The notes under the pieces: model-generated
Database searches by the model: none
Told to the model about the DNA's origin: nothing
The model's input: the letters and a program-made list of their open reading frames with translations, nothing else
Program-made: the position numbers and the translations under genes
Shown: in pieces, positions 10,864-60,581 of the stretch
How positions within the stretch are numbered: position 1 is the first letter of the stretch
How the letters are laid out: each line of letters opens with the position of its first letter
NCBI GenBank assembly: GCA_020721805.1
Contig: DYMB01000001.1
Location: 243,149-307,148, forward strand
Direction of reading: 5' to 3'
Origin: Acetofilamentum sp.
GTDB taxonomy: Bacteria > Hydrothermota > 32-111
DNA: 64,000 nucleotides

Positions 10864-10882
10864 TATAAACTTCAATATAATA

Positions 10883-10911
10883 AAAAGCCCCCTTTGAAAG
10901 GGGGCTTTTTT
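10883..10911. terminator. Bidirectional intrinsic terminator between the convergent subtilase and lgt genes
   Basis: AAAAAGCCCCC-TTTGAAA-GGGGGCTTTTT is a GC stem flanked by an A-run and a T-run, so it works on both strands. It lies between stop codons at 10863 (+) and 10914 (-). Confidence 0.8.
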
Positions 10912-10913
10912 AT

Positions 10914-11726: not shown

Positions 11727-11727
11727 A

Positions 11728-15863: not shown

Positions 15864-15896
15864 TGGAGGGATCCTTTAAGGATCCCCCTTCTTTAT
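15864..15896 (+). terminator. Intrinsic terminator hairpin after serA (GGGATCC-TTTAA-GGATCCC followed by a T-rich tract)
   Basis: A GC stem followed by CTTCTTT, directly after the serA stop. Confidence 0.5.
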
Positions 15897-22288: not shown

Positions 22289-23594
22289 AAAAATCTTTTC
22301 CTGAAAGGTATTCGAATAGAATCGGTTCTTTCATTTTTACAATATCAGATATGGTATTTGAAATATCTCTTATCTCCCACTGTGCATGTTTATCCGATCT
22401 GAGACGGACAAAATGATAGATCTCTCTAACATTCATTTTTAGAATAACTTTTCTTTTTGTAGAGTTGAGCACGGCATATTTGTAAAGTAGAGGATTCTTG
22501 CCATAAAGTGATAATGAGAGTTCTTTGCTTTCCAGAGCAAGGTTTAACAACTTTTTTTCAAAGGGAGTATTCTTTAAAGTTTCAGGGATAACAGGTTTAG
22601 AGTTTATATCGTAACCCTGAGTTATTATTGTAGCCATTCTATGTCTTTTCAATTGAGCGTAACATGATGCTGAACATGATATTAGAAATGTGAAATCAAC
22701 AAGTTCAAACTCTCTTGGAGGTTTATCAAAAGATTTTAAATTTTTAAAAATATTTTTTATAAAATTCTTTTTTGAATTTTCATCGTAATTCTTGATGGAA
22801 AGATTTTTACCCTCCCTGTGGAAAAGATATGATGAGATAATTCTTTTAAATCCATCATAATCATATTTTAAAAGTTTAACACTTTTTTTTAAAGTAGATC
22901 CTTTGGGTATGTTTTCAAGATCTTTGAATTTTTCATCGGGTTGAGTGTACTTTATTATTGATGGGGAGAGTCTTGTCGATTCTTTTTCAAGTTCGTTTGC
23001 AATGTTGTAAAGTTCAACAATGTTTTGACTTTTCAATCTTGAGATCATATATTCAAGAGTTCTACCGTTAAGAGTCATACCACACTGTGTTAGGGTTGAT
23101 AATGGTAAAAAATATCTGGAATCTTCATTGGATGTTTGTCTATCATTTTTCTGGTTTAAATACTCATAGGATTTTTCATAAAGTTGAAAACATCTTTTGT
23201 TAAAATTGACAAATTTTTCAAGTAGATCTTTATCATCCTTCAATTCGTATGGGATTATAAAACCTGTATGTGTGTTGACATATCTCTGTGATTTTTCGGT
23301 AAAGGCTGCAAGTCTATGGTGTTGTATATATTCTATCGCTAACCTTGATATATCAACAAGATCAAAATTAAAGACAGCATGTTCAGCTATCGATGAGTGT
23401 CCGAGTTGAAAAACAATTTTTTCATTGGATCTTCTTGCGTTGACTATATCCTTTGCGGATTCTTCCCTTAACTCCTTTATACTCTTTGAAGATCTTGATA
23501 TCCTTGCATATGCTGCACATAGAGTTTCAGGTGTTTTTATATAACGATCACCAAATTCTCTATCATAGTTGAAACCTGAAAGTTCCACCTTCAT
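22272..23594 (-). CDS. thyX: FAD-dependent thymidylate synthase, tandem-domain form
   Basis: The first half contains HSSIAEHAVFNFDL...YIQHHRLAAFTEKSQRY, which aligns to the ThyX signature. The second half repeats an RHR-like motif (LKRHRMATI). Length 440 aa. Confidence 0.7.
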   Translation of the reverse strand: MKVELSGFNYDREFGDRYIKTPETLCAAYARISRSSKSIKELREESAKDIVNARRSNEKIVFQLGHSSIAEHAVFNFDLVDISRLAIEYIQHHRLAAFTEKSQRYVNTHTGFIIPYELKDDKDLLEKFVNFNKRCFQLYEKSYEYLNQKNDRQTSNEDSRYFLPLSTLTQCGMTLNGRTLEYMISRLKSQNIVELYNIANELEKESTRLSPSIIKYTQPDEKFKDLENIPKGSTLKKSVKLLKYDYDGFKRIISSYLFHREGKNLSIKNYDENSKKNFIKNIFKNLKSFDKPPREFELVDFTFLISCSASCYAQLKRHRMATIITQGYDINSKPVIPETLKNTPFEKKLLNLALESKELSLSLYGKNPLLYKYAVLNSTKRKVILKMNVREIYHFVRLRSDKHAQWEIRDISNTISDIVKMKEPILFEYLSGKDFYDEKR

Positions 23595-25564
23595 CTTTTC
23601 CCCAGCATATTTAAAAATTCTGACTCAGAAATGATCTTTACTTTAAGTTTTTTCGCCTTATCAAGTTTCGATCCGGGATTTTCACCCATTATGAGATAGT
23701 TGGTCTTTGTTGATACATTTTCAGAGAAGTTACCGCCATTTTCAATTATAATGTTTTTTATCTCATCCCTTTTAAAATTTTTCAGGGTTCCAGTTATGAC
23801 GAAAAGGATACCTTTTAGAACCTCAGATTTTTTATCTTTTTCTATTTTTATTTTACAGGACAGAAGATCTTTGATGAGATTTATATTCCCTTGATTTTTA
23901 AAAAACATCTGAATGTTTCTGACTGTCTCATCGCCGATACCTTCAATACCTTTAAGTTTTTCATAATCGCTATTCATAAGTTCATCTATAGAGTCAAAAA
24001 CTTCGGCAAGTTTTTCCGAAAGAAATTCTCCAACATTTTTTATCCCGAGTGAATAGATGAATCTTTTGAGTGTTGTTTTTTTTGAATTCTCAATTGAATT
24101 TAAAATATTGTTTGCACTCTTTTCTTTGATCCTTGGTATCTGAAAAAGTTTTTCTTTTGTCAGTCTGTAAATGTCAGGTATGGTTTTTATAAGATCGTAT
24201 TGAAGTAATTTTTTTACCATCATTTCACCAAGGTTTTCGATGTTCATAGCCTTTTTTGAACAGAAATGTATTATGGATAATTCTATCTGTGCAGGGCAAT
24301 TCTTGTTGATACATCTTAAAGCGACTTCGTCTTCATATTGTATCAAGGGTTGTCCACAGGAAGGGCATATGGTAGGTTTTGATATTTTTATCTCGGTTCC
24401 ATCTCGTTTATCGTTAAGAACTCTTATGATCTTTGGTATTATTTCCCCACTCTTTTCTATCTCAACATGATCGTTAATTTTTATATCGAGTCTTTCTATC
24501 TCATCAAAATTGTGAAGAGTTGCCCTTTTTACGGTTGAACCTGAAATGTATACAGGGTCAAGATTAGCCACCGGTGTTATTATTCCTGTTCTTCCCACTT
24601 GAAATGATACATATAAAAGTTTTGTTATACTCCTTTCAGGTTCATATTTAAAAGCGAAAGCCCATTTTGGTGATTTTGAAGTGTATCCTATTATATCTCT
24701 TAAATAAAGTTGATTTATCTTTATTACGATACCATCCGTTTCATATGGTAGAGTGTCCCTATCGGTTTTGAATTTTTCTTTTATATCCAGAACTTCAAGA
24801 ATATTCTTTGCGATATAATACTTTTCAACAATGGGAATTCCAAAAGATTTTAAAATTTCAAGAGTTTCGGTATGGGTTGATGCAAGATCAGTTATAACGG
24901 TGTGTATTCTTATTGAAAGACCTCTTCTTGCAACCTCTTTTGGTGCAAGAAGTTTCAAGGTTCCAGATGCCGCATTTCTTGCATTGGAGAATGGATATTT
25001 TTCAATCAATTTTGAAAATCTTTCCTTTGTGAAAAAGACCTCTCCTCTAACTATGAGTTCACCTTTGTATTCCGTGTTCAAAACGAGGGGTAGTTCCCTT
25101 ATGGTTTTAATGTTTGCCGAAACATCATCACCGATATTACCATCACCTCTCGTAAGACCTTTAAAAAATTTAGAATCCCTGTAGATTATCGAAACGGCAG
25201 CCCCATCTATTTTTGGCTCAACCGTGTATGTGTAGTTATCTTTAACCGATGTTTTTATCCTTTTATCAAATTCAAGGATTTCCCTATCCGAATATGTGTT
25301 TTCAAGTGATAACATTCTTGGGTTATGGGAAAATTTTTCAAAATTCTCTATATTCTTTTCTGATACCCTCTGGGTCGGGGAGAATTGAGAATAAAACTGT
25401 GGATATTTCTTTTCAAGTTCAAGCAGCTGGTGGTAAAGTTTATCATATTCGTAATCATCGATTAAAGGATCGTTTAAAACATAATAATGGTAATCATATT
25501 TTTCTATGATCTTACGGAGTTGTTCTATTCTTTCCCTAATCACATTATCATTTATTTTTACCAT
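23591..25564 (-). CDS. ligA: NAD-dependent DNA ligase
   Basis: Adenylation motif KIDGAAVS (KxDG), an OB fold, a Zn-finger Cys cluster (CPSCGQPL...C..C), HhH and a C-terminal BRCT domain. Length 657 aa. Confidence 0.9.
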   Translation of the reverse strand: MVKINDNVIRERIEQLRKIIEKYDYHYYVLNDPLIDDYEYDKLYHQLLELEKKYPQFYSQFSPTQRVSEKNIENFEKFSHNPRMLSLENTYSDREILEFDKRIKTSVKDNYTYTVEPKIDGAAVSIIYRDSKFFKGLTRGDGNIGDDVSANIKTIRELPLVLNTEYKGELIVRGEVFFTKERFSKLIEKYPFSNARNAASGTLKLLAPKEVARRGLSIRIHTVITDLASTHTETLEILKSFGIPIVEKYYIAKNILEVLDIKEKFKTDRDTLPYETDGIVIKINQLYLRDIIGYTSKSPKWAFAFKYEPERSITKLLYVSFQVGRTGIITPVANLDPVYISGSTVKRATLHNFDEIERLDIKINDHVEIEKSGEIIPKIIRVLNDKRDGTEIKISKPTICPSCGQPLIQYEDEVALRCINKNCPAQIELSIIHFCSKKAMNIENLGEMMVKKLLQYDLIKTIPDIYRLTKEKLFQIPRIKEKSANNILNSIENSKKTTLKRFIYSLGIKNVGEFLSEKLAEVFDSIDELMNSDYEKLKGIEGIGDETVRNIQMFFKNQGNINLIKDLLSCKIKIEKDKKSEVLKGILFVITGTLKNFKRDEIKNIIIENGGNFSENVSTKTNYLIMGENPGSKLDKAKKLKVKIISESEFLNMLGKR

Positions 25565-28500
25565 GACAGTTTTTATATTTTTTTCCGGAACCGCAGAAAC
25601 ATGGATCGTTTCTTCCTATCTTTTTTGAAGTATTTACAATAGGCTTCAGTTTGGCCGGGTTTTCATCAGTTATGTTTGAAATATTTTTTTTAATCGTTTC
25701 AACCATCTTCAATTCTTTTCTTTTTATTTCCATTTTTTCAAACGAAGAAAGGAATTTTTGTGCAAAATCTTTAAAAAGGTTATCCATAAAATCACTGAAA
25801 AGTTGATATGCTTCCCTTTTAAATTCTATCAAAGGATCCCTCTGGGCATATCCTCTCAAAAATATTCCTTCCTTTATGGCATCAAGTTCGTAAAGTTGTT
25901 CTATCCATAGATTGTCTATACTATGTATAAACATATTTGATATGTTAAAAACCAGTATATCGGTTCTTTCAAAAAATGGAGAGATTTTTTCGTCGAATAT
26001 CTCTTTGATGCTTTTTAGTATATTTTCCAGTAAAAGATTACGGGGAATCTCTTCTTCTTTAGTCTTTATTGAAACTCTGAAATTGTTGATTAAAAATTCG
26101 TTTATTATTCCAAGTTCATCACCGCTAACCTGATTTTGAAAATTCTTTTCAACAAATTCTTTTACTACCTGGTTAATATTTTCAATTATATAGTCATAGA
26201 TGATTTTAAAATTATCTTTAAAGGTTTGATAAACTGTATCGTTAACCAATTTGAAAAAGTTTTCATCTATGTTTTCAAAAGAGAGTTCTTTTATTTTTTC
26301 ACAGTTCAAGATTATCGAAAGTTCTCTGATCTTTTCAGATTTTAGATTCTCATCATCCGTTTTTAAGAATTGATCTTTAAAATTCAAAAGAGTTTTCAAA
26401 AAAAGTTCTTTGTCAAGATATTCAATCGGAGGTTTTTTTTCAAGGAAAAAATTCCTTATCTGATAAACAACCTCTCTCTGCTTATTTATAACATCATCGT
26501 ATTGGAGTAGATATTTTCTTCTTTCAAAATTTAAAGATTCGATTTTTTTCTGAGCGTTTTCTATAGACGATGTTAGAAGTTTGTGGGATATGTTAACATC
26601 TTTTGATGAAAAGGATTCAAGCCTCTTTATGAGATCACTTATTCTTTCATTTCCAAATATTCTCATCAGATCATCTTCAAGTGAAACGGTAAAAAGGGAT
26701 GAACCGGGATCCCCCTGTCTCCCAGATCTGCCTCGTAGTTGTCTATCTATTCTTCTTGATTCATGTTTTTCAGTTCCAAGAACAAATAAACCCGGAGAAA
26801 AAGCAAGCACTGGTTTTCCATTTTTGTCGAATTCTACAAAAACTTTTCTGTTTTCAAAATCCTCTGGGTTGGTTATTTCAATACAGAATTTTGTGTTATC
26901 TGTTAGAAAAGAATCATCATCGGTTATCAATATTTTATTTTTTTCATTTTTTTCGTATGTAAAATATATAGATTTATCTTTAAGATATGGATCATTTTTA
27001 AGAATAAAATCTATATACTCTTTTGAGAGATCGTATCTATAAACTATAACAGGTTCTTTTGTTAGTTTTTCCTTAACAAAGAGAGCTTGCATCAAGCAAC
27101 TTCTTTCGGGTAACATCTTTATGGTTTGTCCGAGTTTGATATCGGTTCCTCTACCAGCCATATTTGTTGCAACGGTTATGGCTCCCTGAAGACCCGCTTC
27201 AGCAATTATCTTTGCCTCTTTTTCATGGTATCTTGCATTTAAAATATTGTATTTTAAAGTTTTACCCTGATTATCCTTTCTGTTTTTTAAAAATGAATCA
27301 AGATACTCACTCGATTGAACCGATGCGGTTCCGACAAGTATCGGTATCCCAGCATTGTGGAGTTTATTGATAAGATCTATAACATATTTTATCTTTTCAT
27401 CTTTTCTTATGAAAATAATATCGTTGTAATCTTTTCTTATAACCTTTTTGTTTGTTGGAATAACTATAACAGGTAATTTGTATATATGTAAAAATTCATC
27501 CTGTTCGGTTTCAGCGGTTCCAGTCATTCCAGAAAGTCTTTCAAACATTCTGAAAAGATTCTGCAAAGTTATTGTAGCGAGTGTTTTGGTCTCCTCTTCT
27601 ATTCTCACATCTTCCTTTGCTTCTATAGCTGAATGGAGTCCTTCAGAGAATCTTCTTCCGGGCATCAGTCTTCCGGTATGCTCATCCACTATTACAACTT
27701 TTCCATTCTGAACTATATATTCAACATCTTTTTCGAAAAGGGTGTAAGCCTTTAAAAGTTGATGTAAAGCATGTATCTGTTCACTTTTTAAAATGTATTG
27801 TTGCATTATTTGGTTTTTCTGTTTGTTTTTTTCAGCGGGATCTTCAACAGTTTCATCTATATTTTTTAATTCTGTGGAAAGTTCAGGTGTTTTAAAAAAT
27901 TCTTTATCACCATATATCTTTTCAAAATAATCTTCCCCTTTATCGGTGATAGTTATCCCACCACTCTTCTCATCTATCGAATAGAGGAGTTCCTCATCAA
28001 GTGTATGTAAAATTTTATCTCTTATAAAAATATTTTCCATTTTTTCCATTTTTGCGATGATCTCTGAATTGTTTAGAAGATCTGTAATCTCCTTCATCTT
28101 TGGGAAACCCCTTTTTGCAGATAAAAATAGTTTTATCGCATCATCCTCTTTACCTTCTTCAAAAGTTCTTTTTGCTTTTTGAAAAATATTTTTTACGATT
28201 TCCTTTTGTGTCCTAACGAACTGATTTACAGATGGATTCAAACTCCTATAGAGTTGTTCTGTTCTTTTTTCCTCCGGATCTCCAAAAGGATAACCTGAAA
28301 TTATAAGTGGGGTTCTTGCCTCATCTATCAAAACAGAGTCAACCTCATCTATTATAGCATAGTAAAAGTTCTCTCTCAAAACCTTGTCGGATCTTTGAAA
28401 AGCCATGTTGTCTCTTAAATAATCAAATCCAAATTCATTGTTGGTAACATAGGTTACATCACAGTTATAGTTTTTTCTTCTTTCCTCTGGTGTCATTCCC

Positions 28501-29018
28501 ATCTGGATCAAGCCAACCGAAATCCCAAGTCTTTCAAATACTGGAAACATCCATGCTTTATCCCTCTTTGCAAGATAGTCGTTAACAGTTATAAGGTATG
28601 CACCTCTTTTTTTAAGTGAATGCAAATATAAAGGCATAACAGCTACAAGTGTTTTACCTTCACCTGTTGCCATCTCAACTATGTTTCCTTCAAAAAGTGC
28701 AGCGGATCCCAACAGTTGAACATCGAAAGGAACCATATCCCATACGAATTTCATATCCTCATATGTGTATTCAAATTTTTCATCGTAGAGTTTTTTCATC
28801 ACATATTTTACCAGAGCAAAGGATTCAACGATCATCTCTGAAGGATTCTCTCCATCCTCTATCCTCTTTATGAATTCATAGGTTTTCTTTTTTGGATCAA
28901 GCAAGGGATCCTTTAAGTATATTTCATAGGTTTCGTTTATCTTTTCAACCAGTCTATCGTACTCTTTTAATTTTTTTTGAGAGTAGGAAGGGAAAATTTT
29001 TTTAAACAAGTTTAGCAT
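25548..29018 (-). CDS. secA: Preprotein translocase ATPase SecA, long FCB-type
   Basis: N-terminal MLNLFKKIF typical of SecA. Walker A MATGEGKT, SGMTGTAETE, and a C-terminal zinc-binding tail CFCGSGKKYKNCHG. Length 1156 aa, with large PPXD/NBD2 insertions. Confidence 0.92.
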   Translation of the reverse strand: MLNLFKKIFPSYSQKKLKEYDRLVEKINETYEIYLKDPLLDPKKKTYEFIKRIEDGENPSEMIVESFALVKYVMKKLYDEKFEYTYEDMKFVWDMVPFDVQLLGSAALFEGNIVEMATGEGKTLVAVMPLYLHSLKKRGAYLITVNDYLAKRDKAWMFPVFERLGISVGLIQMGMTPEERRKNYNCDVTYVTNNEFGFDYLRDNMAFQRSDKVLRENFYYAIIDEVDSVLIDEARTPLIISGYPFGDPEEKRTEQLYRSLNPSVNQFVRTQKEIVKNIFQKAKRTFEEGKEDDAIKLFLSAKRGFPKMKEITDLLNNSEIIAKMEKMENIFIRDKILHTLDEELLYSIDEKSGGITITDKGEDYFEKIYGDKEFFKTPELSTELKNIDETVEDPAEKNKQKNQIMQQYILKSEQIHALHQLLKAYTLFEKDVEYIVQNGKVVIVDEHTGRLMPGRRFSEGLHSAIEAKEDVRIEEETKTLATITLQNLFRMFERLSGMTGTAETEQDEFLHIYKLPVIVIPTNKKVIRKDYNDIIFIRKDEKIKYVIDLINKLHNAGIPILVGTASVQSSEYLDSFLKNRKDNQGKTLKYNILNARYHEKEAKIIAEAGLQGAITVATNMAGRGTDIKLGQTIKMLPERSCLMQALFVKEKLTKEPVIVYRYDLSKEYIDFILKNDPYLKDKSIYFTYEKNEKNKILITDDDSFLTDNTKFCIEITNPEDFENRKVFVEFDKNGKPVLAFSPGLFVLGTEKHESRRIDRQLRGRSGRQGDPGSSLFTVSLEDDLMRIFGNERISDLIKRLESFSSKDVNISHKLLTSSIENAQKKIESLNFERRKYLLQYDDVINKQREVVYQIRNFFLEKKPPIEYLDKELFLKTLLNFKDQFLKTDDENLKSEKIRELSIILNCEKIKELSFENIDENFFKLVNDTVYQTFKDNFKIIYDYIIENINQVVKEFVEKNFQNQVSGDELGIINEFLINNFRVSIKTKEEEIPRNLLLENILKSIKEIFDEKISPFFERTDILVFNISNMFIHSIDNLWIEQLYELDAIKEGIFLRGYAQRDPLIEFKREAYQLFSDFMDNLFKDFAQKFLSSFEKMEIKRKELKMVETIKKNISNITDENPAKLKPIVNTSKKIGRNDPCFCGSGKKYKNCHGKNK

Positions 29019-42470: not shown

Positions 42471-42531
42471 AATACCAATCTCATATTCCCTCCCTAACCG
42501 GTTGGCCTCGCTTCCAACCGGGTTTTTTTTT
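42471..42531 (+). ncRNA. Predicted ~60-nt small RNA with C-rich (UUCCCUCCCU) single-stranded region ending in an intrinsic terminator
   Basis: An ORF-free transcript bounded by a promoter and the terminator CCGGUUGG-CCUCGCUU-CCAACCGG + U9 (42498-42531). The CCUCCC motif is complementary to Shine-Dalgarno GGAGG. Confidence 0.35.
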
Positions 42532-42572
42532 ATGGTGAGATATGATCGTAATAAACTTATAAGTTCTATACT

Positions 42573-42600
42573 TGACAACTAATGAAATATTGTTATAATA
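42573..42600 (+). promoter_or_regulatory. Sigma70 consensus promoter (TTGACA, 16 nt, TATAAT) for the yceD-rpmF-plsX-fab operon
   Basis: TTGACA at 42573-42578 and TATAAT at 42595-42600. The ORF-track start at 42582 would lie inside the promoter, so the Met at 42609 is preferred. Confidence 0.5.
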
Positions 42601-49897: not shown

Positions 49898-50893
49898 ATG
49901 GATTTAAAAGAATATAAAGGCGTTCTGGTTTACATTGAAACAAGGTTTGGAAAAATTGAAAAAGTTTCATTTGAACTTCTTAACAAGGGAAGAGAACTTG
50001 CTGATAAAAAGAGAGTTGATCTGACTAGTCTTATAATAGGTTATGATGTTGAAAAATTTTCAGATGAACTCATAAAAAAGGGTTCGGATAAAGTTATACT
50101 TGTTGATGATGAAAGGCTAAAAGATTTTGTGGATTCAACATATTCCAATATTGTTGTTGATGTTGTAAAAAAGTATAAACCTGAAATCTTTATAGCGGGT
50201 TCAACAAATATAGGTAGATCTCTATTCCCAAGAGTTTCCGCAAAACTTTTAACAGGTCTTACAGCAGATTGTACCGAACTTGATATAGATCCAGAGGATG
50301 GGAAACTGTTGCAAACAAGACCAGCCGCAGGTGGATCGATAATGGCTACGATCGTAACTCCAAACAGAAGACCACAGATGGCAACCGTAAGACACAAAGT
50401 CTTTAAAGAGGCGATTATGGATCCGAAAAGAACCGGAATAGTCGAAAGGTTCTCTATAGAGGAAAGAATGATAGATAAAAGGGTCGAGTATCTTGGTTTC
50501 GAAAAAGATGAAACTCAGACTGTAAACCTTTCAGATGCTGATATCATAGTATCTGGTGGAAGAGGTTTAAAATCAAAAGATAATTTTAGTTTAATATTTG
50601 AACTGGCTGGTCTTCTTAACGGTGCCGTAGGTGCTTCAAGACCCTGTATAGATGATGGATGGTTACCATTCTCCCATCAGGTCGGTCAGACAGGTAAAAC
50701 GGTTTCTCCAAAACTTTATCTGGCTGTTGGAATATCTGGAGCCATACAGCATCTTGCAGGTATGAAATCTTCCGAAACTATAATCGCTATAAATAAGGAC
50801 CCAAACTCCCCAATTTTTCAGGTGGCTGATTATGGAATAGTTGGTGATCTTTTTGAGGTTGTGCCACTTCTTATAAAAAAGTTGAAAAGATGA
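49898..50893 (+). CDS. etfA: Electron transfer flavoprotein alpha subunit
   Basis: FAD-binding C-terminal domain: VSGGRGLKS, GASRPCIDDGW, QVGQTGKTVSPKLYLAVGISGAIQHLAGM. Confidence 0.88.
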   Translation: MDLKEYKGVLVYIETRFGKIEKVSFELLNKGRELADKKRVDLTSLIIGYDVEKFSDELIKKGSDKVILVDDERLKDFVDSTYSNIVVDVVKKYKPEIFIAGSTNIGRSLFPRVSAKLLTGLTADCTELDIDPEDGKLLQTRPAAGGSIMATIVTPNRRPQMATVRHKVFKEAIMDPKRTGIVERFSIEERMIDKRVEYLGFEKDETQTVNLSDADIIVSGGRGLKSKDNFSLIFELAGLLNGAVGASRPCIDDGWLPFSHQVGQTGKTVSPKLYLAVGISGAIQHLAGMKSSETIIAINKDPNSPIFQVADYGIVGDLFEVVPLLIKKLKR

Positions 50894-51597
50894 AAAAATA
50901 TTCAATAAGTGCGATGTTTCCCTGCTATAATGACAGGGAAACCATAAGTTTACTTATTGATAAGGTGAATTCAAAATTAAAACAATTTGCAGATGATTAC
51001 GAGATAATAGTTGTTGATGATTTTTCCACTGATGGTTCAAGAGAGATTTTACTTGAAAAATCAAAAGAGAATAAAAAGTTGAGATTGATCTTCCATGATA
51101 AAAATTTAGGCTATGGTTTAACGATAAGGGATGGATTGTTAAATGCTAAATTTCCCTATTTTTTTTATACAGATGGTGATGGGCAGTATGATCCTGATGA
51201 AATAGAAAAACTGATAAAATTTCTTGATGATGATATGGCCCTTGTTAACGGATATAAGATTTTAAGGAGGGATCCATTTTACAGGATAATAATAGGAAGA
51301 CTCTATAACCTTTTTATGAAATTTTTTTTTGGAATAAAACTTAAAGATATCGATTGTGATTTCAGGATAATTAAAAAAGATATCTTTAAAGATGAAAAAT
51401 TTATTTCAACCTCTGGAACCATATGTGTTGAAATGGTAAAAAAGATCGAATTGAAAAAGGGAAAGATAAAAGAGGTTGGTGTAAACCATTACAACAGAGA
51501 ATATGGTAATTCACAGTTTTTCAATTTTAAAAGATTATTTTTTGTTAGTTTTCATATTTTGATTTTATGGTATAATATTGTAGGTAAAAGGAGATAA
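50890..51597 (+). CDS. GT2 polyprenol-phosphate sugar synthase (DPM1/ArnC/CsbB-like)
   Basis: GT-A motifs VVDDFSTDGS and DGDGQYDP (DxD), with a C-terminal amphipathic/TM segment. ATGA overlap with etfA. Confidence 0.8.
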   Translation: MKKYSISAMFPCYNDRETISLLIDKVNSKLKQFADDYEIIVVDDFSTDGSREILLEKSKENKKLRLIFHDKNLGYGLTIRDGLLNAKFPYFFYTDGDGQYDPDEIEKLIKFLDDDMALVNGYKILRRDPFYRIIIGRLYNLFMKFFFGIKLKDIDCDFRIIKKDIFKDEKFISTSGTICVEMVKKIELKKGKIKEVGVNHYNREYGNSQFFNFKRLFFVSFHILILWYNIVGKRR

Positions 51598-51601
51598 TTT
51601 T

Positions 51602-52579
51602 ATGAAAACAAAAAAAATAAAATCTGTTCTTATAACCGGTGGTTTAGGTTTCATAGGTTTAAACCTTTCACAGTTTTTTATTCAAAAGGGGATTGAAGTT
51701 TTTGTTCTCGATTCAAAGAATGAAAATTCTGGTTATAACGAATTTCATCTACTTACCCTTAAGAAAAAAGGTTTGACTATAATTGAGGGGACGATAGGTA
51801 ATATTCATAAGCATAGAGAAATATTGAAAAATGTTGATTCTGTTGTTGACCTTGCCGGACTTATAGGACATCTTGATTCTATGAAAAATCCACTTGCTGA
51901 TATAGAGAATAATACTGTTGAACATATTAGATTTCTTGAAAATATCAAAGGATTTAAAATCTCTAAAATAGTTTACACTTCTACAAGACAGGTTTATGGG
52001 AAACAGGAGAAGATGCCTGTTGATGAAAATGCCACTGTAAAACCTCTTGATTTCAACGGGATCAACAAATATTCGACTGAATCATATTATTCGATATATT
52101 CAAAACACTTAAACTTTGATGTCGTGATTTTGAGATTATCAAACATATATGGTGAAGGTATGCATATAAGGGATAAAAGGTTATCATTTTTGGGTTGGTT
52201 TATGAACAGGATCATAACAAATAATCCTATAGAAATTTTTGGTGATGGCTTAAATGTTAGAGATCTTCTCTATGTTGGAGATCTTGTAAATACAATATAC
52301 AATTCACTTGTTATGGATGTTTCCGGAATTTTCAATGTTGGTTCAGATAAAACATTCACTCTTAAAAGAATTGCCGAAATTCTTGTTGATTTGAATCCTA
52401 AATCTTCAATAATCTATGTTCCCTTTCCTGACGTTTTGAAAAACATAGATATTGGTTCTTTTATAATAGATAATTCGAAAGCAAAAAATCTACTTGAACA
52501 CAGAGAAATTGTTAGTATAGAGGAAGGGTTGAAAAAAACTTATGAATACTTCCAAAAATATAAAGGATATTATCTATGA
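51602..52579 (+). CDS. NAD-dependent epimerase/dehydratase (extended SDR) acting on a nucleotide sugar
   Basis: Rossmann motif VLITGGLGFIGLNL. Length 325 aa. Sits in a sugar-modification cluster. Confidence 0.75.
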   Translation: MKTKKIKSVLITGGLGFIGLNLSQFFIQKGIEVFVLDSKNENSGYNEFHLLTLKKKGLTIIEGTIGNIHKHREILKNVDSVVDLAGLIGHLDSMKNPLADIENNTVEHIRFLENIKGFKISKIVYTSTRQVYGKQEKMPVDENATVKPLDFNGINKYSTESYYSIYSKHLNFDVVILRLSNIYGEGMHIRDKRLSFLGWFMNRIITNNPIEIFGDGLNVRDLLYVGDLVNTIYNSLVMDVSGIFNVGSDKTFTLKRIAEILVDLNPKSSIIYVPFPDVLKNIDIGSFIIDNSKAKNLLEHREIVSIEEGLKKTYEYFQKYKGYYL

Positions 52580-53643
52580 TACCTTTTACTCAATTGAACA
52601 GGAATAAAGAGGAATTTAAAAGAATAAAAAAAGAACTGGATAATTTTTATAAAAAAGGGAAGTTTATTCTTGGAGATTATAACAGTGAGTTTGAAAATCT
52701 TTTTGGAAAGTTTATAGGTAAAAAATATGTTGTTGGAACAGGTAACGCAACCGATTCTTTATATCTTATCCTTAGAATATTAAAAGCCAAAAAGGTTGGA
52801 GTGTGCGCTTCGAGTCCTTTACCATGTGGACAGGCGATAAAAATGGCTGGTTGTGAGATGGTTCTTTTTGATACCTATCCAGATTCAGGATTGGTTAATA
52901 TCGAGCAGTTTCAAAAATCTAGAAAAAAAATAGATCTCTTTCTTGCGGTTCATCTATATGGACAGGCTGAAAGGATTGAAATATTGAAAGATGTTTGTGA
53001 TAGAAAGGGAATAGTTCTTGTTGAGGATTGTTCACAATCAATAGATACCTATATCGATGGGAAACATACAGGCTCCAACTCTGTCTTGTCAGCATTTTCA
53101 TTCTATCCAACGAAAAATTTAGGATGCTATGGTGATGGGGGAGCTATTGCAACAGATGATTTTAAATTGTACACAATGCTTCAAAAGATGAGAAATTATG
53201 GTCAGAAAGAGATATACTCTTCAGAAATGGAAGGGATAAACAGTAGACTCGATGAAATTCAGGCACTCGTTTTAATTGAAAAACTTAAAAGTCTAAAGAA
53301 AAAAAATGACAAAAGAAGGGAAATAATAAGGAAATATTATGATGGAATAAAAAATAAATATGTATCTTTTCCTTCGGAAAGATATTATAAAACTTCAAAT
53401 GGTCATATCTTCCCAATATTTTCACAAAGAAGGGATCAACTTAAAGAGCATCTTTTAAAACAGGGTATAATCACAGCGATCCATTATCCTTATCCTTTAC
53501 ATAAACAAAAATATTTTTATCAGGATATAATTTTGAAAAACTCGGAAAAACTTTCAAAAAGAGAACTTTCACTACCGATTTTTCCTGAAATGACGGATAA
53601 TGAGGTTTTAGAGGTTATAAAAGGAGTAAACTCTTTTAAATGA
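52576..53643 (+). CDS. DegT/DnrJ/EryC1/StrS (ArnB-like) PLP-dependent sugar aminotransferase
   Basis: Signature AFSFYPTKNLGCYGDGGAIATDD, containing the PLP-Lys region. Confidence 0.85.
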   Translation: MIPFTQLNRNKEEFKRIKKELDNFYKKGKFILGDYNSEFENLFGKFIGKKYVVGTGNATDSLYLILRILKAKKVGVCASSPLPCGQAIKMAGCEMVLFDTYPDSGLVNIEQFQKSRKKIDLFLAVHLYGQAERIEILKDVCDRKGIVLVEDCSQSIDTYIDGKHTGSNSVLSAFSFYPTKNLGCYGDGGAIATDDFKLYTMLQKMRNYGQKEIYSSEMEGINSRLDEIQALVLIEKLKSLKKKNDKRREIIRKYYDGIKNKYVSFPSERYYKTSNGHIFPIFSQRRDQLKEHLLKQGIITAIHYPYPLHKQKYFYQDIILKNSEKLSKRELSLPIFPEMTDNEVLEVIKGVNSFK

Positions 53644-54359
53644 GAAACAAAGAATTTGATAATGTTTTTAAAATTGAAGAGAACCATTTCTGGTTTATCA
53701 ACAAAAGAAGAATCGTTGATTTTTATTTGAAAAAATATTATAAAGATGGTTTGATACTCGACTCAGCATGTGGAACTGGAAGGGATATAAAAGATTTAAA
53801 GGATGCGATAGGAATGGATTATAGTTTCGATGGTTTACTACTGGCTTACAATTATTGCAAAAGTTTGGTTAACGGTGATGCAAACTTTTTACCTTTTAAA
53901 GATAAAACTTTTTCAATTATTTTTTCGTTCGATTTAATACAACATAAAAGTATTGATATAGATAAAGTTTTAAGAGAGTATAACAGAGTTTTAAAGAAGG
54001 GTGGATATGTTTTTTTGAACCTTCCAATGTTTAACTTTTTATATAGTAATCATGATAATGTTGTTGAAACTTCAAAAAGATTTTCTACCAGAGATTTTAA
54101 AATTTTTAAATCTTATGGTTTTACCATCAAAGAAAAATCTTTCTGGAATTTTTTATTTTTCCTTCCTATAATTTTTTATAGAAAGGTAATATCAAATTTT
54201 TTATCATATGATGAATATTCCGATGTTAGACCTCTTAAACCTTCTATGAATAAAGTTTTTGATAGACTGTTTAAATTTGAATTTTTTCTTTTCAAAATGG
54301 GTTTTATTCCTGTTGGAGTTTCATCATTTGTTGTTTTAAGTAAACAGGTTGACCTATAA
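53640..54359 (+). CDS. Class I SAM-dependent methyltransferase
   Basis: Motif I ILDSACGTGRD and motif post-I/II (LKKGGYVFLN). ATGA overlap with the aminotransferase. Confidence 0.7.
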   Translation: MRNKEFDNVFKIEENHFWFINKRRIVDFYLKKYYKDGLILDSACGTGRDIKDLKDAIGMDYSFDGLLLAYNYCKSLVNGDANFLPFKDKTFSIIFSFDLIQHKSIDIDKVLREYNRVLKKGGYVFLNLPMFNFLYSNHDNVVETSKRFSTRDFKIFKSYGFTIKEKSFWNFLFFLPIIFYRKVISNFLSYDEYSDVRPLKPSMNKVFDRLFKFEFFLFKMGFIPVGVSSFVVLSKQVDL

Positions 54360-54382
54360 TTTTTCAATATTATAATAAAAAT

Positions 54383-56500
54383 ATGATAAGAATATTGAAA
54401 AAGACGATTTTTCTATTTTTTTTCATCCTTTTCTTTTTTAAAATTTTCACAGGTTATGGTATAATTGATGGAGATTTTCTTGATGAATATGTCCCTAAAT
54501 TTTTTCTTTTAAAAAATTCTTTTCACTCTTTTAAATTCCCTATTTATGAAAAATCTTTTGGATTAGGTTTTCCCATATACAAAGATATACAATCCGGCAT
54601 TTTTTATCCATTAAACTGGCTTGTAATGTTACCTTTTGATTTTATGTTTATGGTTCATATTATTATTCTGTTAAATGTTTTGATACTATTTTTTGGTATC
54701 TATAAACTTTTAAAAAGGTTAAAAATTGAAAATGACTTTTCTTTATTACTTTCGCTTATTTTTACCTTTTCTTCTTTTACGATCTCCCATATTCCACACT
54801 ATACCATAATCGCTTCTCTTACCGTCCTGCCTTATGTTTTAATTTCGCTTATAGATTTTTTCGAAAAACAAAATAAAAAAAGTTTTATACTTACAGTTAT
54901 CCTCTTTTTGCTTCAATTAGCAGCGGGGCATCCTCAGATATTTTTTTACACTCTTCTACTTTCCTTTTTTATTTTTTTAATACGGTACAGAAACTTTAAA
55001 AATTTTCTTTATCTTTTTATACTATTATTCTTCTCTTTCTTTGTTTCACTCTTTATCATAATCCCAACTTTTGAAGTATTCAAATTCTCATACAGAATGG
55101 ATCTTAACTATAACACTATTCCTGTGAAATATTTGATTTTAACACTCTTTCCAGATCTTTTTGGCGGAGTTTCAACAATTTTTAAAAGAGCGTATGATGG
55201 TTTGTCAAATATAAATGAAACTTCATTTTATTTTTCTTTACTCTTCTTTTTTTCACTATCCTTTTCGATATATGATATTTTTGTTAACGGAAACCTGAAA
55301 AGTTTAAAAAAATATTTATTACCACTCTTTTTTCTATCAATATCTTTTCTGGATTTTATCTATTTAAAAATTTTTTTAACACCCTATAGGGCTCTATCAA
55401 TTTCGATAGGCATTTTTCTTTTACTCTTTTTACCAGAAATGTTGAAAAAAATGGAAAAAAAGTTTTTACTCTTTTCAATTCTTTTTTTTACCTTCCTACT
55501 TCTTTTTATTTTGTTGAGAAGTTTTTCATTTAGAAGATATATGATAACAATTTTATTTTTTATATGCTATATCTTGTTTTTTCATTTTGTGTGGTTAAAA
55601 GAAGATTATGGGAAAGATTTTAAAATCTTATTTCTTTCTGTTATCATACTTTTGGATCTCTTTGTTTTAACAGGTAATATTATAAAATTTGAAAAAATGG
55701 AAAAAATAAAAAATGTTCCATACGATGAACTTTCGGGTAAGTATATTTTAACCTTTATACCTGAAGATATACTCTTTTATAAAGAGTATATAAAAGAATA
55801 TTTTGATGTTTACGATCTTGAAGTTCTAAAAAAATATTCAACATATGGTAACAGAGGGATATACTATTCATCATATTCTTTCAACCTATATCAAAATTTT
55901 ACTTTTAAAAAGTATGTTGAATTTTTTGATGATCCATCCATAATGACGGGTGGTTTTTCAAATCTCAATTTTATACTCAATCCTCTTTATCTGGATTATG
56001 ATTATGTTTTTGTTCCCGATGTTCCTATAATACTTAAAGTTAAAGATTTTTTGAGAATCGATTTCAAAACTGGATTCAGGGATACTCTGTTAATTTTTTA
56101 TGATGGGGATTTTGATGGTCTTGAACCTTTACCCATAAAGGAGCCATACCTGAAAGATATAAAGGATTTAAAAAGTTCTATAATCTATGTTGAAAAGGAT
56201 TTAAGGTTTTTCGGGAAAGGTGAAATTTATATGATTAAAAAATTGAATACCGGTAAAATACTCCATTTTCCATACATTTTTGAAAATTCTGGTTTTGAAA
56301 CTCTTTCAAAAGATCCTTTTTATCTTTTCAAAAAGAATGGTGAAAGAAAAAATAAAAATTATATAACAAATCCTGTTGATGGCAGTTTTGTTGATGAAAA
56401 AAGACTCAAGTTTATTCCCTACGATCTTTTAATGGGATTTCTCGTTTCAATTATTTCCTTTATCGTTTTATTATATTATTCAAAAAAGGAGTTTGGATGA
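54383..56500 (+). CDS. Polytopic GT-C-fold membrane glycosyltransferase (ArnT/PMT/YfhO-like), 705 aa
   Basis: >=12 predicted TM helices. First extracytoplasmic loop carries a DE motif (GIIDGDFLDEYVP) as in GT-C polyprenol-P-sugar transferases. Large C-terminal soluble domain. Downstream of the GT2 synthase. Confidence 0.6.
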   Translation: MIRILKKTIFLFFFILFFFKIFTGYGIIDGDFLDEYVPKFFLLKNSFHSFKFPIYEKSFGLGFPIYKDIQSGIFYPLNWLVMLPFDFMFMVHIIILLNVLILFFGIYKLLKRLKIENDFSLLLSLIFTFSSFTISHIPHYTIIASLTVLPYVLISLIDFFEKQNKKSFILTVILFLLQLAAGHPQIFFYTLLLSFFIFLIRYRNFKNFLYLFILLFFSFFVSLFIIIPTFEVFKFSYRMDLNYNTIPVKYLILTLFPDLFGGVSTIFKRAYDGLSNINETSFYFSLLFFFSLSFSIYDIFVNGNLKSLKKYLLPLFFLSISFLDFIYLKIFLTPYRALSISIGIFLLLFLPEMLKKMEKKFLLFSILFFTFLLLFILLRSFSFRRYMITILFFICYILFFHFVWLKEDYGKDFKILFLSVIILLDLFVLTGNIIKFEKMEKIKNVPYDELSGKYILTFIPEDILFYKEYIKEYFDVYDLEVLKKYSTYGNRGIYYSSYSFNLYQNFTFKKYVEFFDDPSIMTGGFSNLNFILNPLYLDYDYVFVPDVPIILKVKDFLRIDFKTGFRDTLLIFYDGDFDGLEPLPIKEPYLKDIKDLKSSIIYVEKDLRFFGKGEIYMIKKLNTGKILHFPYIFENSGFETLSKDPFYLFKKNGERKNKNYITNPVDGSFVDEKRLKFIPYDLLMGFLVSIISFIVLLYYSKKEFG

Positions 56501-59300: not shown

Positions 59301-60581
59301 ATGAAAAAATCAACTTTCATTATATTTTTTTTAATTTGTATAATTATAATTTTGTTGATAAATTCTGTAATAATTTTAAAGTTTTCTCCTTCAAAGGAAA
59401 AAGGCATGGAAACTAATATTAAGGATATTTTAACAAAGGAGAGAATAGAATCTGGTTTTAGCATCGCAGATGTGATAAGCAATGCTGTTCTTGAACCTTT
59501 ACTTTATGAGGATGAAGCACCAATAATGGATATTGTTGTGAATACTGTAAAAAATTCAAACGGTTTATTAGATTATATAATAGTTATCGATGATAAAGGG
59601 CTCGTCTTTGGTGATTCAAAACAGCCCTTGAATGTTTTAAAACCTTTTAACGATCCTTCTATAAACCTTTTGAAAAGTGAAAACAGGCAGGTTCAGGATA
59701 AAGGAAAAGATTATTACGATCTGGGGCTTTCTATAAAAACTGGTGATAAGAAGAGAGGTGAAATACATCTTGGTTTGAAAAAGGTTTCATTTGAAGAAAA
59801 AACGGAAAAATCTTCTGGCTCGTCTATAATTATTGTAGGGATAACATTTATTCTTGGTATCGTTTTGGCTTTAATATTCTCATTAACAATCTCTTCGAAA
59901 CTTTCAGAAGGGAAGGATTTTGTCAATTTAAGGTCTGCGAAGATAGATGGATTAAGAAAACAGGAAGATGAATTGCAAAAAAGTTTAGCATCCAAAAATA
60001 ATGAGATCAAAAGTAAAGAACAAAAAATATCTGAACTTGAAAAGAAGATAAAGGAGACAGGTTCAAAATATGATGAGGTCGATAGAATAATAAGGGAGAG
60101 CGAACAGGAAATTGAGGAAAAAAAGAAACAGGTAGAGTTTTATGAGAATAAAATATCTGAACTTGTAGAAAAACAAAAAAGTTTAAAAGAGCAGATAGAT
60201 AAGGTAAAAGAGAACGAAACCATCAATGTTGAAGCGGAAAAACTTAAAAATCAGATATCCAATCTTGAAATTCAACTTCAGCAGATAATAAATAATATCG
60301 AAGCGAAAAGAAATGAGGAAAAGAATCTTCTGGAAAGAATAAATCAACTTAAGACACAGGCTTCTTCCATACCTCAGAATGGAAGCATAGGTGCTGTGAT
60401 AGGCACTGAACTGGAAAAGAAAAAGAAAGAGGAATTTGAAATAACACAGAGAATAGTTGCAAAAAGGAAAGAAGAAATAGCCATATCACAAAGGCTTGAA
60501 TTAAAAAGAAAAAAAGAACTTGAACTTACAGGACGTTTGGAAATGCTCGAAAAGAAATTAAAAGAGATGGGGAATGGTTGA
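59301..60581 (+). CDS. Hypothetical bitopic membrane protein with a periplasmic sensor-like domain and a cytoplasmic coiled coil, 426 aa
   Basis: TM1 FIIFFLICIIIILLINSVIIL, ~150 aa extracytoplasmic domain, TM2 IIIVGITFILGIVLALIFSL, then ~230 aa K/E-rich coiled coil. No kinase/HAMP/GGDEF output recognised. RBS AAGGAG upstream. Confidence 0.5.
   Translation: MKKSTFIIFFLICIIIILLINSVIILKFSPSKEKGMETNIKDILTKERIESGFSIADVISNAVLEPLLYEDEAPIMDIVVNTVKNSNGLLDYIIVIDDKGLVFGDSKQPLNVLKPFNDPSINLLKSENRQVQDKGKDYYDLGLSIKTGDKKRGEIHLGLKKVSFEEKTEKSSGSSIIIVGITFILGIVLALIFSLTISSKLSEGKDFVNLRSAKIDGLRKQEDELQKSLASKNNEIKSKEQKISELEKKIKETGSKYDEVDRIIRESEQEIEEKKKQVEFYENKISELVEKQKSLKEQIDKVKENETINVEAEKLKNQISNLEIQLQQIINNIEAKRNEEKNLLERINQLKTQASSIPQNGSIGAVIGTELEKKKKEEFEITQRIVAKRKEEIAISQRLELKRKKELELTGRLEMLEKKLKEMGNG

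Follow-up and report, generated by a model that had tools for sequence, protein, structure and literature searches.

A predicted polyprenyl-phosphate amino-sugar gene cluster with a divergent, probably YfhO-family GT-C protein and a conserved M1-peptidase partner in Acetofilamentum sp. and its WOR-3 relatives

The stretch of DNA considered here, hereafter the window, comprises 64,000 nucleotides of contig DYMB01000001.1 of Acetofilamentum sp. (assembly GCA_020721805.1, positions 243,149 to 307,148 of the forward strand), and between its positions 50890 and 56500 it contains five open reading frames (ORFs), all on the forward strand. These code, in order, for a family 2 glycosyltransferase (GT2), a short-chain dehydrogenase/reductase (SDR), a sugar aminotransferase, an S-adenosylmethionine (SAM)-dependent methyltransferase and a 705-aa membrane protein with the fold of the GT-C glycosyltransferases (Table 1). 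Based on the families and folds of these proteins, the catalytic motifs of the GT2, the aminotransferase and the GT-C protein, and the recurrent linkage of the first four genes with GT-C proteins and small flippases across phyla, we consider it probable that the cluster builds a lipid-linked, methylated amino sugar, which the GT-C protein would transfer to an acceptor in the cell envelope.

A preliminary description of this DNA had noted the five co-directional genes with their 4-nt overlaps or gaps of less than 25 nt, and both the ORF coordinates and the junctions, as read from the sequence, are as claimed there: ATGA overlaps join etfA to the GT2 gene, the SDR gene to the aminotransferase gene and the latter to the methyltransferase gene, while gaps of 4 nt and 23 nt separate the GT2 from the SDR gene and the methyltransferase from the GT-C gene. 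A further ATGA overlap, at 56497, couples the GT-C gene to a gene for a secreted protein with an M1-family peptidase domain; the cluster therefore extends beyond 56500, where it had been thought to end, and the added gene is the only invariant neighbor of the GT-C gene. Tight packing is weak evidence of shared function at this locus, because the entire array from plsX (43243) to truA (63758) is equally co-directional and packed, with gaps of -29 to +62 nt; our functional grouping is based on the finding that the gene set is also kept together in other genomic surroundings. From GT2 to M1 the six genes range from 0.26 to 0.31 in G+C content, and their neighbors from 0.33 to 0.38. A near-consensus sigma-70-type promoter-like site falls at the 23-nt gap and may act as an internal promoter for the GT-C/M1 pair, in AT-rich DNA where the promoter and terminator scan came out close to background (114 promoter-like matches against 91 expected). 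The long yceD-plsX-fab array may begin at a perfect 12/12 promoter-like site (42572-42599), upstream of which lies a strong terminator-like hairpin (42498-42521). The window sequence recurs identically in metagenome-assembled genome (MAG) contigs of JGI sample 3300000227 and of NCBI GCA_973313645.1, and its relatives carry the labels candidate division WOR-3 or TA06.

Table 1. Genes of the cluster and the promoter-like site within it (window coordinates)
Feature	Position	Strand	Basis
Predicted polyprenyl-phosphate glycosyltransferase (GT2), 235 aa	50890..51597	+	PF00535 E 3e-27; ArnC and dolichyl-phosphate mannose synthase (DPMS) are the best solved relatives
Atypical extended SDR without YxxxK, 325 aa	51602..52579	+	PF01370 (Epimerase) E 5e-39
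Pyridoxal phosphate (PLP)-dependent sugar aminotransferase, QdtB/DesV (C-3) type, 355 aa	52576..53643	+	PF01041 (DegT_DnrJ_EryC1) E 1.5e-70
Class-I SAM-dependent methyltransferase with hydrophobic C-terminal region, 239 aa	53640..54359	+	Methyltransf_11 E 1e-13
Promoter-like site TTGACC-N16-TATAAT, 11/12 matches	54349..54376	+	Consensus match only; region AT-rich
Divergent, probably YfhO-family GT-C protein, 705 aa	54383..56500	+	hhalign, AlphaFold2 model, Foldseek
Secreted M1-family zinc metallopeptidase-domain protein, 913 aa	56497..59238	+	Peptidase_M1 E 2e-20

The family assignments first given to the five proteins hold throughout, by Pfam for four of them and by profile comparison and a structure model for the 705-aa protein, although for the SDR, the aminotransferase and the GT-C protein they have to be narrowed. 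The GT2 protein had been taken for a polyprenol-phosphate-sugar synthase with a DxD motif, a prediction that gains from comparison with its best solved relatives, three ArnC structures (68-70 bits, residues 6-223) and the DPMS of Pyrococcus furiosus. According to the ArnC structure paper, polyprenyl-phosphate glycosyltransferases are recognized by a DxDxQ motif (D100ADLQN in ArnC, D94ADLQD in GtrB and D89ADLQH in DPMS), by residues equivalent to R128, R137 and R205 of ArnC, and by two juxtamembrane helices. In the window protein D95-G-D-G-Q99 aligns with ArnC D100-A-D-L-Q104, while K123, R132 and R203, the predicted phosphate-binding residues, align with R128, R137 and R205, respectively; the DxDxQ motif and these lysine and arginine residues do not vary among orthologs drawn from several phyla, and both amphipathic juxtamembrane helices of ArnC have their counterparts in the alignment. 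No transmembrane (TM) segment is predicted in the protein, which stops short of TM1 and TM2 of ArnC, and we therefore regard it as a predicted short polyprenyl-phosphate glycosyltransferase, soluble or monotopic, resembling PpgS, DPM1 and GacI. It scores 32.5 bits against the NCBIfam PpgS model and 79.8 bits against the ArnC equivalog (cutoff 529), and its family is a large one, with members of 235-270 aa in many phyla at about 50% identity.

For the SDR, the epimerase/dehydratase fold family stands as first described, but the catalytic signature that goes with it does not. The tyrosine of the YxxxK motif aligns to an asparagine (fNginK versus pYgiaK), and N-G-I-N is invariant in all seven cassette orthologs compared (the window protein and those of loci L001, L007, L019, L020, L022 and L024), among which the lysine position is occupied by K, N or I. 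These seven orthologs have in turn gained an invariant arginine (T-R-x-x-Y-G) and an S-H-x-D-S motif, and the NAD-binding GxxGxxG is kept as GGLGFIG. A canonical epimerase or dehydratase was rejected because of the absence of the catalytic tyrosine and the presence of N-G-I-N in its place. In a ranking against the PDB the top score belongs to the UDP-hexose 4-epimerase of Thermotoga maritima (4zrm, 111 bits), followed by GlcNAc 4-epimerases (95-98 bits), tyvelose 2-epimerase (95 bits), the UDP-glucuronate decarboxylase UXS (85-87 bits) and dTDP-glucose 4,6-dehydratases (at most 79 bits), so that no subtype stands out among the solved epimerases and decarboxylases; against ArnA the protein scores 29.5 bits, with a cutoff of 777. 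Because the canonical tyrosine is replaced, the chemistry of this enzyme is not readable from homology, and its sequence marks it as an uncharacterized subfamily, or active-site type, within the fold of the epimerases and dehydratases of nucleoside diphosphate (NDP)-sugars.

The aminotransferase, first described as of the DegT/ArnB type, is indeed a DegT-family protein, but its affinities within that family lie with the QdtB/DesV/WbpE clade and not with ArnB. The best PDB matches are 7b0d (228 bits), 7n63 (204), QdtB (201), WlaRG-type enzymes (187), DesV (177) and WbpE (146), well ahead of NtdA (103), ArnB (80-91), PseC (73), perosamine synthase (65) and PglE (48). The ortholog from L020 reproduces the same order with stronger scores (QdtB 403 bits, DesV 358, ArnB 187-206), and an ArnB-type enzyme was rejected on these grounds; the match of the window protein to the ArnB equivalog (109 bits) is likewise far from the cutoff of 631. 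A literature search on PDB entries 7B0D and 7N63 found nothing. The protein shares with QdtB the motifs FSFYPTKNLGxYGDGG, which includes the PLP lysine, and NSRLDEIQA, and by these it is predicted to be intact. QdtB, DesV, WbpE and NtdA all aminate C-3 of their sugar substrates. As the window protein falls in a clade of characterized C-3 aminotransferases, it is most likely a C-3 aminotransferase as well.

The methyltransferase is orthologous to the methyltransferase found in every cassette locus, and word-indexed searches with it reached only close WOR-3 relatives. Searches of the PDB with the single sequence and with a cross-phylum profile recovered only generic class-I enzymes, such as PH0226, phosphoethanolamine N-methyltransferases and a glucose O-methyltransferase; TylM1 and DesVI were absent from the seven single-sequence matches and from the best 60 profile matches, which leaves a TylM1/DesVI-like enzyme unsupported. 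Its C-terminal region carries two conserved hydrophobic segments (around residues 168-183 and 215-234). By analogy with the DesV/DesVI and TylB/TylM1 pairs, and because an irreversible step after transamination would parallel the formylation carried out by ArnA, we favor the new amine as the most likely target of methylation, with O-methylation as the alternative.

No Pfam model matches the 705-aa protein at E<=1e-3; the YfhO model (PF09586) gives a sub-threshold score of 15.9 bits (E 0.004; gathering score 28.5 bits). When a profile of 18 orthologs was compared with one of 21 proteins annotated with PF09586, hhalign aligned the two over 489 columns with a probability of 100% and an E-value of 1e-43. 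A word-indexed search retrieved 42 proteins, of which 14 were full-length homologs with 34-99% identity, those of them with names belonging to WOR-3-type MAGs, and the rest carried YfhO annotations; in an exhaustive phmmer search 12 representatives passed E<=1e-30, and 4744 relatives, aligned over the N-terminal TM core, passed E<=1e-3. The AlphaFold2 model (predicted local distance difference score, pLDDT, 88.5; predicted TM-score, pTM, 0.88) suggests about 13 TM helices, a periplasmic beta-rich domain (residues ~440-675) and a final C-terminal TM helix. In a Foldseek comparison of this model with the PDB all high-probability matches were GT-C enzymes, namely PglB, yeast and human STT3, Pmt4, ArnT, ALG12 and EmbB (probability 0.97-1.0), with TM-scores of 0.3-0.45, as expected of remote GT-C relatives. 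A transporter, the alternative named in the preliminary description, is rejected by the same comparison, in which transporters reached a probability of at most 0.12. The predicted acidic motif of the first loop is also present, as G30-D31-F-L-D34-E35-Y after TM1, with D31 and D34 invariant in the 18 orthologs. Among the three families that had been put forward for this protein (PMT_2, YfhO and ArnT) it is thus YfhO that is supported and not ArnT or PMT_2, and from profile and model together we read the protein as a divergent GT-C subfamily that probably falls within the YfhO family.

Its downstream partner has a signal peptide, a GGGMEY motif and an intact zinc site (HEIAH-X18-E). Matches of the protein to PDB sequences are confined to the catalytic domain; the C-terminal region of about 320 aa, in which phenylalanine and tyrosine make up 22% of the residues, has none. 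The sequence ends in FKFIKNF, a terminal phenylalanine being present in four of eight orthologs, and this aromatic-rich region could be an outer-membrane beta-barrel. Wherever a locus includes DNA beyond the GT-C gene (L001-L016), the M1 gene comes next, and the adjacency persists across no fewer than three distinct contexts on the left and right, which makes GT-C/M1 the only invariant gene pair among the WOR-3 ortholog loci examined. Speculatively, the M1 protein could be the acceptor of the GT-C protein or its partner in acceptor recognition; a review of multi-component glycosylation speculates that second proteins of this kind exist (PMC8035078). Between the M1 gene and leuS lies a gene for a 426-aa protein (59301-60581, + strand) that has two TM segments and a long coiled coil, matches no Pfam family, occupies the same place in most WOR-3 loci (54-70% identity) and is absent from L007 and L016.

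We then examined the conservation of the gene neighborhood, beginning with the WOR-3 loci. The order fab-rnc-etfBA-GT2-SDR-aminotransferase-methyltransferase-GT-C-M1-p426-leuS is kept in five species with about 58% identity in the GT-C protein. The same order is found in L019 (32-33% GT-C identity), with an extra 548-aa membrane protein (10486-12132) inserted between the methyltransferase and the GT-C protein; a comparable polytopic protein of 540 aa occurs in L016 (1875-3497), and neither has a counterpart in the window. Based on weak matches to GT87 and to ALG6/ALG8, these proteins are each probably a second GT-C enzyme. In L007 (35% GT-C identity) the SDR, aminotransferase, methyltransferase, GT-C and M1 genes follow purB without a GT2 gene, which the same genome retains (63% identity) behind etfA on a separate contig (L018). 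L016 (31% GT-C identity) has the order aminotransferase-methyltransferase-540-aa protein-GT-C-M1, directly followed by a GtrA flippase gene (8354-8746), then by a gene for a restriction endonuclease-like protein and by one for a GFO/IDH/MocA oxidoreductase (9656-10726) that resembles UDP-GlcNAc 3-dehydrogenase at a score below the cutoff. Just after the M1 gene of L007, at 10415-11861, are found an RmlA equivalog (386 bits, cutoff 360.65) and a 194-aa phosphoglycosyl transferase. The L007 RmlA and the L016 oxidoreductase are possible, if weak, clues to the donor sugar. In sum, genes from the SDR-aminotransferase-methyltransferase set accompany GT-C/M1 in three of the four deep WOR-3 lineages (58%, 35% and 31-33% GT-C identity) with different flanks. 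The etfA/GT2 coupling, from which the cluster had been described as an appendage of the fab-etf operon, is real as a junction but implies no functional link to fab or etf: it is kept in WOR-3 even where the cassette has moved away, and thus reflects synteny of the lineage.

Outside WOR-3, four loci with distant GT2 relatives (L020, L022, L023 and L024) were examined in detail, and a metagenome scan with a GT2 profile added 80 loci, annotated with hidden Markov models built from the cassette. L020, a 3.7-Mb contig with sorting domains of the type IX secretion system (T9SS), and L022 both show the order GT2-SDR-aminotransferase-methyltransferase followed by a 124-aa EamA/SMR-like protein and a PMT_2 protein; L023, from a Komeilibacteria genome of the candidate phyla radiation (CPR), and L024 have shuffled cassettes with an SMR-like protein and/or polytopic proteins of 584-609 aa. 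EamA/SMR-like proteins of 123-124 aa are present in L020, L022 and L023. All four cassette proteins are orthologous to those of the window, with 50-53% identity for the GT2, 33-39% for the aminotransferase, 33-35% for the SDR and 29-32% for the methyltransferase. Of 17 GT2 orthologs in the metagenome scan, 14 lie within 3 kb of an SDR, aminotransferase or methyltransferase gene, and for the other three the DNA available downstream is shorter than 0.9 kb. Cassette-grade neighbors accompany 10 of these 17 orthologs, as opposed to 4 of the 63 remaining GT2s (Fisher p = 8e-6), and two of these four are borderline orthologs. Large polytopic proteins adjoin the cassette in every long locus of the scan, with Pfam matches to PMT_2 (L026, L027, L028, L041), YfhO (L027, L034) or DUF2079 (L025). 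The four genes thus form a mobile cross-phylum module paired with interchangeable GT-C proteins and small flippases. By the definition given in a review of such systems, this pattern marks periplasmic glycosylation that draws on a polyprenyl-phosphate sugar (PMC8035078). This recurrence in WOR-3 and in unrelated phyla supports the logic of the Arn and CsbB/YfhO systems proposed for the window in the preliminary description, and shows the SDR, aminotransferase and methyltransferase genes traveling with GT2 and GT-C genes, not as part of a standard O-antigen pathway. A literature search found no description of the GT2-SDR-aminotransferase-methyltransferase cassette, which, its coverage being incomplete, is absence of evidence only; a 2026 paper on Actinoplanes describes clusters unrelated to it.

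In light of these observations we consider the following scheme probable in outline; its chemical details are more tentative and have the odds somewhat against them. A cytoplasmic nucleotide sugar would presumably be converted to a keto sugar by the atypical NAD-binding SDR, and the QdtB/DesV-type aminotransferase would aminate this keto sugar, most likely at C-3. The SAM-dependent methyltransferase would then methylate the amino sugar, most likely on the new amine, a step that could make the transamination irreversible. The short ArnC-like GT2 would move the finished sugar onto polyprenyl (undecaprenyl) phosphate at the inner membrane face, a flippase encoded elsewhere in the genome would bring the lipid-linked sugar to the periplasmic face, and the YfhO-family GT-C protein would pass it to an envelope acceptor, perhaps a glycan or a lipid, perhaps a protein, with the M1 protein as one candidate.

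Several points weigh against this scheme. The functions of all its members are predictions. The SDR lacks the canonical tyrosine and, in some orthologs, the lysine, such that its oxidation of a sugar is putative; the methyltransferase does not specifically resemble the known sugar N-methyltransferases; and for the GT2, which has no TM anchor of its own, a membrane partner was not found, a soluble GT-A enzyme being able to operate with a separate membrane protein in known systems (PMC8035078). Neither a nucleotidyltransferase nor a ketoisomerase or other keto-sugar-forming enzyme is encoded in the 64-kb window. The observation that no flippase gene lies in the cluster extends to the entire window, since neither Pfam nor tblastn searches with the GtrA and SMR/EamA proteins of sister loci gave anything significant; in known systems flippase genes are often unlinked, as for GtcA in Bacillus subtilis (PMC8035078). 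Furthermore, in L005, L014 and L015, the WOR-3 clade with 41-44% GT-C identity, the genes that precede the GT-C/M1 pair are those for LemA and a 570-aa protein, no cassette is adjacent, and hence the GT-C protein could use a different donor.

The last point bears on the possibility that two independent units are juxtaposed in the window, the cassette serving another transferase and GT-C/M1 forming an envelope module with a donor of its own, with their adjacency reflecting the synteny of a compact genome. Such a division would agree with GT-C/M1 being the sole invariant unit, found on its own in the three loci just named, with the promoter-like site in the gap between the methyltransferase and GT-C genes, and with the co-directional, tight packing of the whole 20-kb array whatever the function of its genes. 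Yet in three of the four deep lineages of WOR-3, whose outer flanks differ, it is the SDR-aminotransferase-methyltransferase set that immediately precedes the GT-C gene, outside WOR-3 the cassette always adjoins some GT-C protein, including members of the YfhO family (L027, L034), and the window holds no other GT-C protein that the cassette could serve; we accordingly think this division unlikely. Another arrangement of the same enzymes, to which we give about the same low weight, would place the tailoring on the lipid: the GT2 would first load a common sugar (for example Glc, GlcNAc or GlcA, taken from its UDP derivative), the SDR, aminotransferase and methyltransferase would modify it in its lipid-linked form, and flipping and transfer by the GT-C protein would follow. 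The GT2 is the most conserved member (about 50% identity across phyla versus 29-39% for the other three), which fits a common donor, and comes first in most loci; the active site of the SDR is remodelled; and the hydrophobic C-terminal segments of the methyltransferase suggest membrane association. Precedents are DprE1/E2 acting on decaprenyl-phosphate-ribose and an SDR epimerase proposed to act on undecaprenyl-phosphate-ribofuranose (PMC11127046), as well as ArnD acting on undecaprenyl-phosphate-Ara4FN. However, the aminotransferase is close to soluble NDP-sugar aminotransferases, as the 403-bit score of the L020 ortholog against QdtB illustrates, the SDR retains the overall extended-SDR architecture that binds NDP-sugars, and the homologous steps of the Arn pathway occur at the level of the nucleotide sugar. 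Moreover, we know of no aminotransferase that acts on a lipid-linked sugar.

A conventional cytoplasmic pathway, in which the cassette would make an NDP-amino sugar for an undecaprenyl-pyrophosphate-linked O-antigen, capsule or S-layer glycan and the GT2 would be an ordinary elongating enzyme, is disfavored, since the GT2 aligns in full length with ArnC and DPMS and keeps the juxtamembrane helices, the polyprenyl-phosphate-specific DxDxQ motif and the arginine and lysine residues. Co-occurrence with small SMR/EamA or GtrA proteins and GT-C proteins is moreover a signature of periplasmic glycosylation. We therefore view this pathway as very improbable, even though the RmlA equivalog and the small phosphoglycosyl transferase directly after the M1 gene of L007, and the location of several cassette loci within larger polysaccharide clusters with Wzx-like and GT1 genes, would be in keeping with it. 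At the other extreme, the cluster might embody a widespread and biochemically novel way of making a methylated 3-amino sugar linked to polyprenyl phosphate, in which the tyrosine-less NGIN SDR carries out the oxidation by a non-canonical mechanism, possibly with the lipid-linked and not a nucleotide sugar as its substrate, methylation replaces the formylation of the Arn pathway, and the WOR-3 GT-C protein glycosylates the co-translated, secreted and possibly outer-membrane-anchored M1 peptidase as a dedicated enzyme-substrate pair; taken as a whole, this elaboration strikes us as unlikely.

Under the preferred scheme, in which a nucleotide-linked amino sugar is finished in the cytoplasm before its transfer to the lipid carrier, the closest functional parallel is the Arn pathway (Ugd, ArnA, ArnB, ArnC, ArnD, ArnE/F and ArnT), which delivers L-Ara4N from undecaprenyl phosphate to lipid A and shares with the window cluster an SDR-type oxidation, a DegT-family transamination, an N-modification, a polyprenyl-phosphate GT2 with ArnC as its closest solved relative, and a GT-C transferase; sister loci add a small SMR/EamA-type flippase (L020, L022, L023), and outside WOR-3 the GT-C protein is mostly of the ArnT/PMT_2 type. 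The window cluster differs from it in having a SAM-dependent methyltransferase in place of a formyltransferase and deformylase, and the absence of ArnA formyltransferase and ArnD deformylase noted earlier holds for Pfam searches of the whole window, where no such domain was found. It differs further in its QdtB/DesV-type aminotransferase, in an SDR that is not ArnA-like and lacks YxxxK, in a GT-C protein of the YfhO family instead of ArnT, and in a GT2 that lacks the two TM helices of ArnC and remains far below the ArnC cutoff. With the CsbB/GtcA/YfhO system of Firmicutes teichoic acids it has in common the combination of a GT-A polyprenyl-phosphate glycosyltransferase with a YfhO-family GT-C protein, including the loop-1 aspartate, C-terminal periplasmic domain and final TM helix of the latter, and the possibility of a flippase encoded elsewhere (PMC8035078). 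In contrast to that system, the window donor would be custom-made by three extra enzymes and not be UDP-GlcNAc, and the GT-C protein falls below the Pfam YfhO threshold and has a conserved M1-peptidase partner. CsbB has a TM domain and the window GT2 has none. The WOR-3 host, furthermore, encodes a T9SS-type sorting domain and is therefore probably diderm; one would not expect its acceptors to be teichoic acids.

The DesV/DesVI and TylB/TylM1 pairs make a dTDP-3-amino sugar and then dimethylate it at the 3-amino group, and QdtB makes dTDP-Quip3N. The window aminotransferase belongs to their clade and, as in these pathways, a gene for a small class-I SAM-dependent methyltransferase directly follows it; unlike them, the cluster has no RmlB-type dehydratase or QdtA/Tyl1a ketoisomerase, its methyltransferase is unlike DesVI and TylM1, and its product would proceed to a polyprenyl-phosphate carrier and a GT-C protein in place of a Leloir glycosyltransferase. 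In the FlmF2/NaxD/FlmK system of Francisella, LgmABC of Bordetella and PpgS/Rv3779 of Mycobacterium, a short or ArnC-like GT2 makes a polyprenyl-phosphate-amino sugar that a GT-C enzyme transfers to lipid A or arabinogalactan; these systems start from UDP-HexNAc and use a deacetylase, with no SDR, aminotransferase or methyltransferase. PpgS, at about 230 aa and without TM helices, resembles the window GT2 in both respects. Finally, the undecaprenyl-phosphate-pentofuranose systems (Citrobacter youngae ORF12-15; GT136) and the mycobacterial decaprenyl-phosphate-arabinose (DPA) pathway likewise proceed through a cytoplasmic lipid-linked monosaccharide with optional SDR tailoring, a small or MATE transporter as flippase and a GT-C enzyme with an extra periplasmic beta-rich domain (PMC11127046). 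Their donor, however, is made from phosphoribosyl pyrophosphate by a phosphoribosyltransferase, with no GT2, aminotransferase or methyltransferase, and their SDR keeps YxxxK (PMC11127046). In sum, the window system works like Arn and CsbB/GtcA/YfhO and is a member of neither.

Elsewhere in the window, two subtilase (S8) proteins are encoded on the forward strand (1850-4003 and 6019-10863), the 1614-aa one of which has a T9SS C-terminal sorting domain (Por_Secre_tail/CHU_C), which implies an outer membrane in this host, along with a type IX secretion system. At 1156 aa the SecA protein (25548-29018, reverse strand) is unusually long: residues 6-509 are taken up by the DEAD motor domain, whose profile has 290 positions, and residues 526-801 by the second P-loop domain, whose profile has 205, which implies that it carries large insertions. 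A ThyX (Thy1) protein of 440 aa (22272-23594, reverse strand) is about twice the usual length and matches its family in two stretches, suggesting a tandem-duplicated or fused flavin-dependent thymidylate synthase. Three consecutive ORFs on the forward strand (15895-21147), of 912, 436 and 404 aa, match nothing in Pfam at E<=1e-4 and lie within the stretch of lowest G+C content in the window (0.26); they are followed on the opposite strand by a gene for a GT4 glycosyltransferase (21149-22288).

Periplasmic glycosylation from polyprenyl-phosphate sugars shapes surface charge, resistance to antimicrobial peptides, phage recognition and antigenicity, and to our knowledge only a handful of donor sugars carried on polyprenyl phosphate are known, namely Ara4N, GalN, GlcN, Glc, GlcNAc, Gal, GalA, Man and pentofuranoses. 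The features described here overturn no current concepts; what sets them apart is the cross-phylum GT2-SDR-aminotransferase-methyltransferase module, its NGIN SDR, the presence of a QdtB-type aminotransferase in what is predicted to be a lipid-carrier pathway, and the WOR-3-specific GT-C/M1 pair. The module pairs interchangeably with PMT_2, YfhO or DUF2079 GT-C proteins, and it does so in WOR-3, in one genome of the CPR, in another with T9SS sorting domains and in unassigned contigs from metagenomes. If our proposal is correct, it would represent a new cationic or methylated amino-sugar modification of the cell surface, and its SDR a new active-site type in which NGIN replaces YxxxK. The strict pairing of the GT-C protein with the M1 protein suggests a testable candidate acceptor or partner, and heterologous expression of the cluster would offer a tractable entry into the envelope biology of uncultured phyla.

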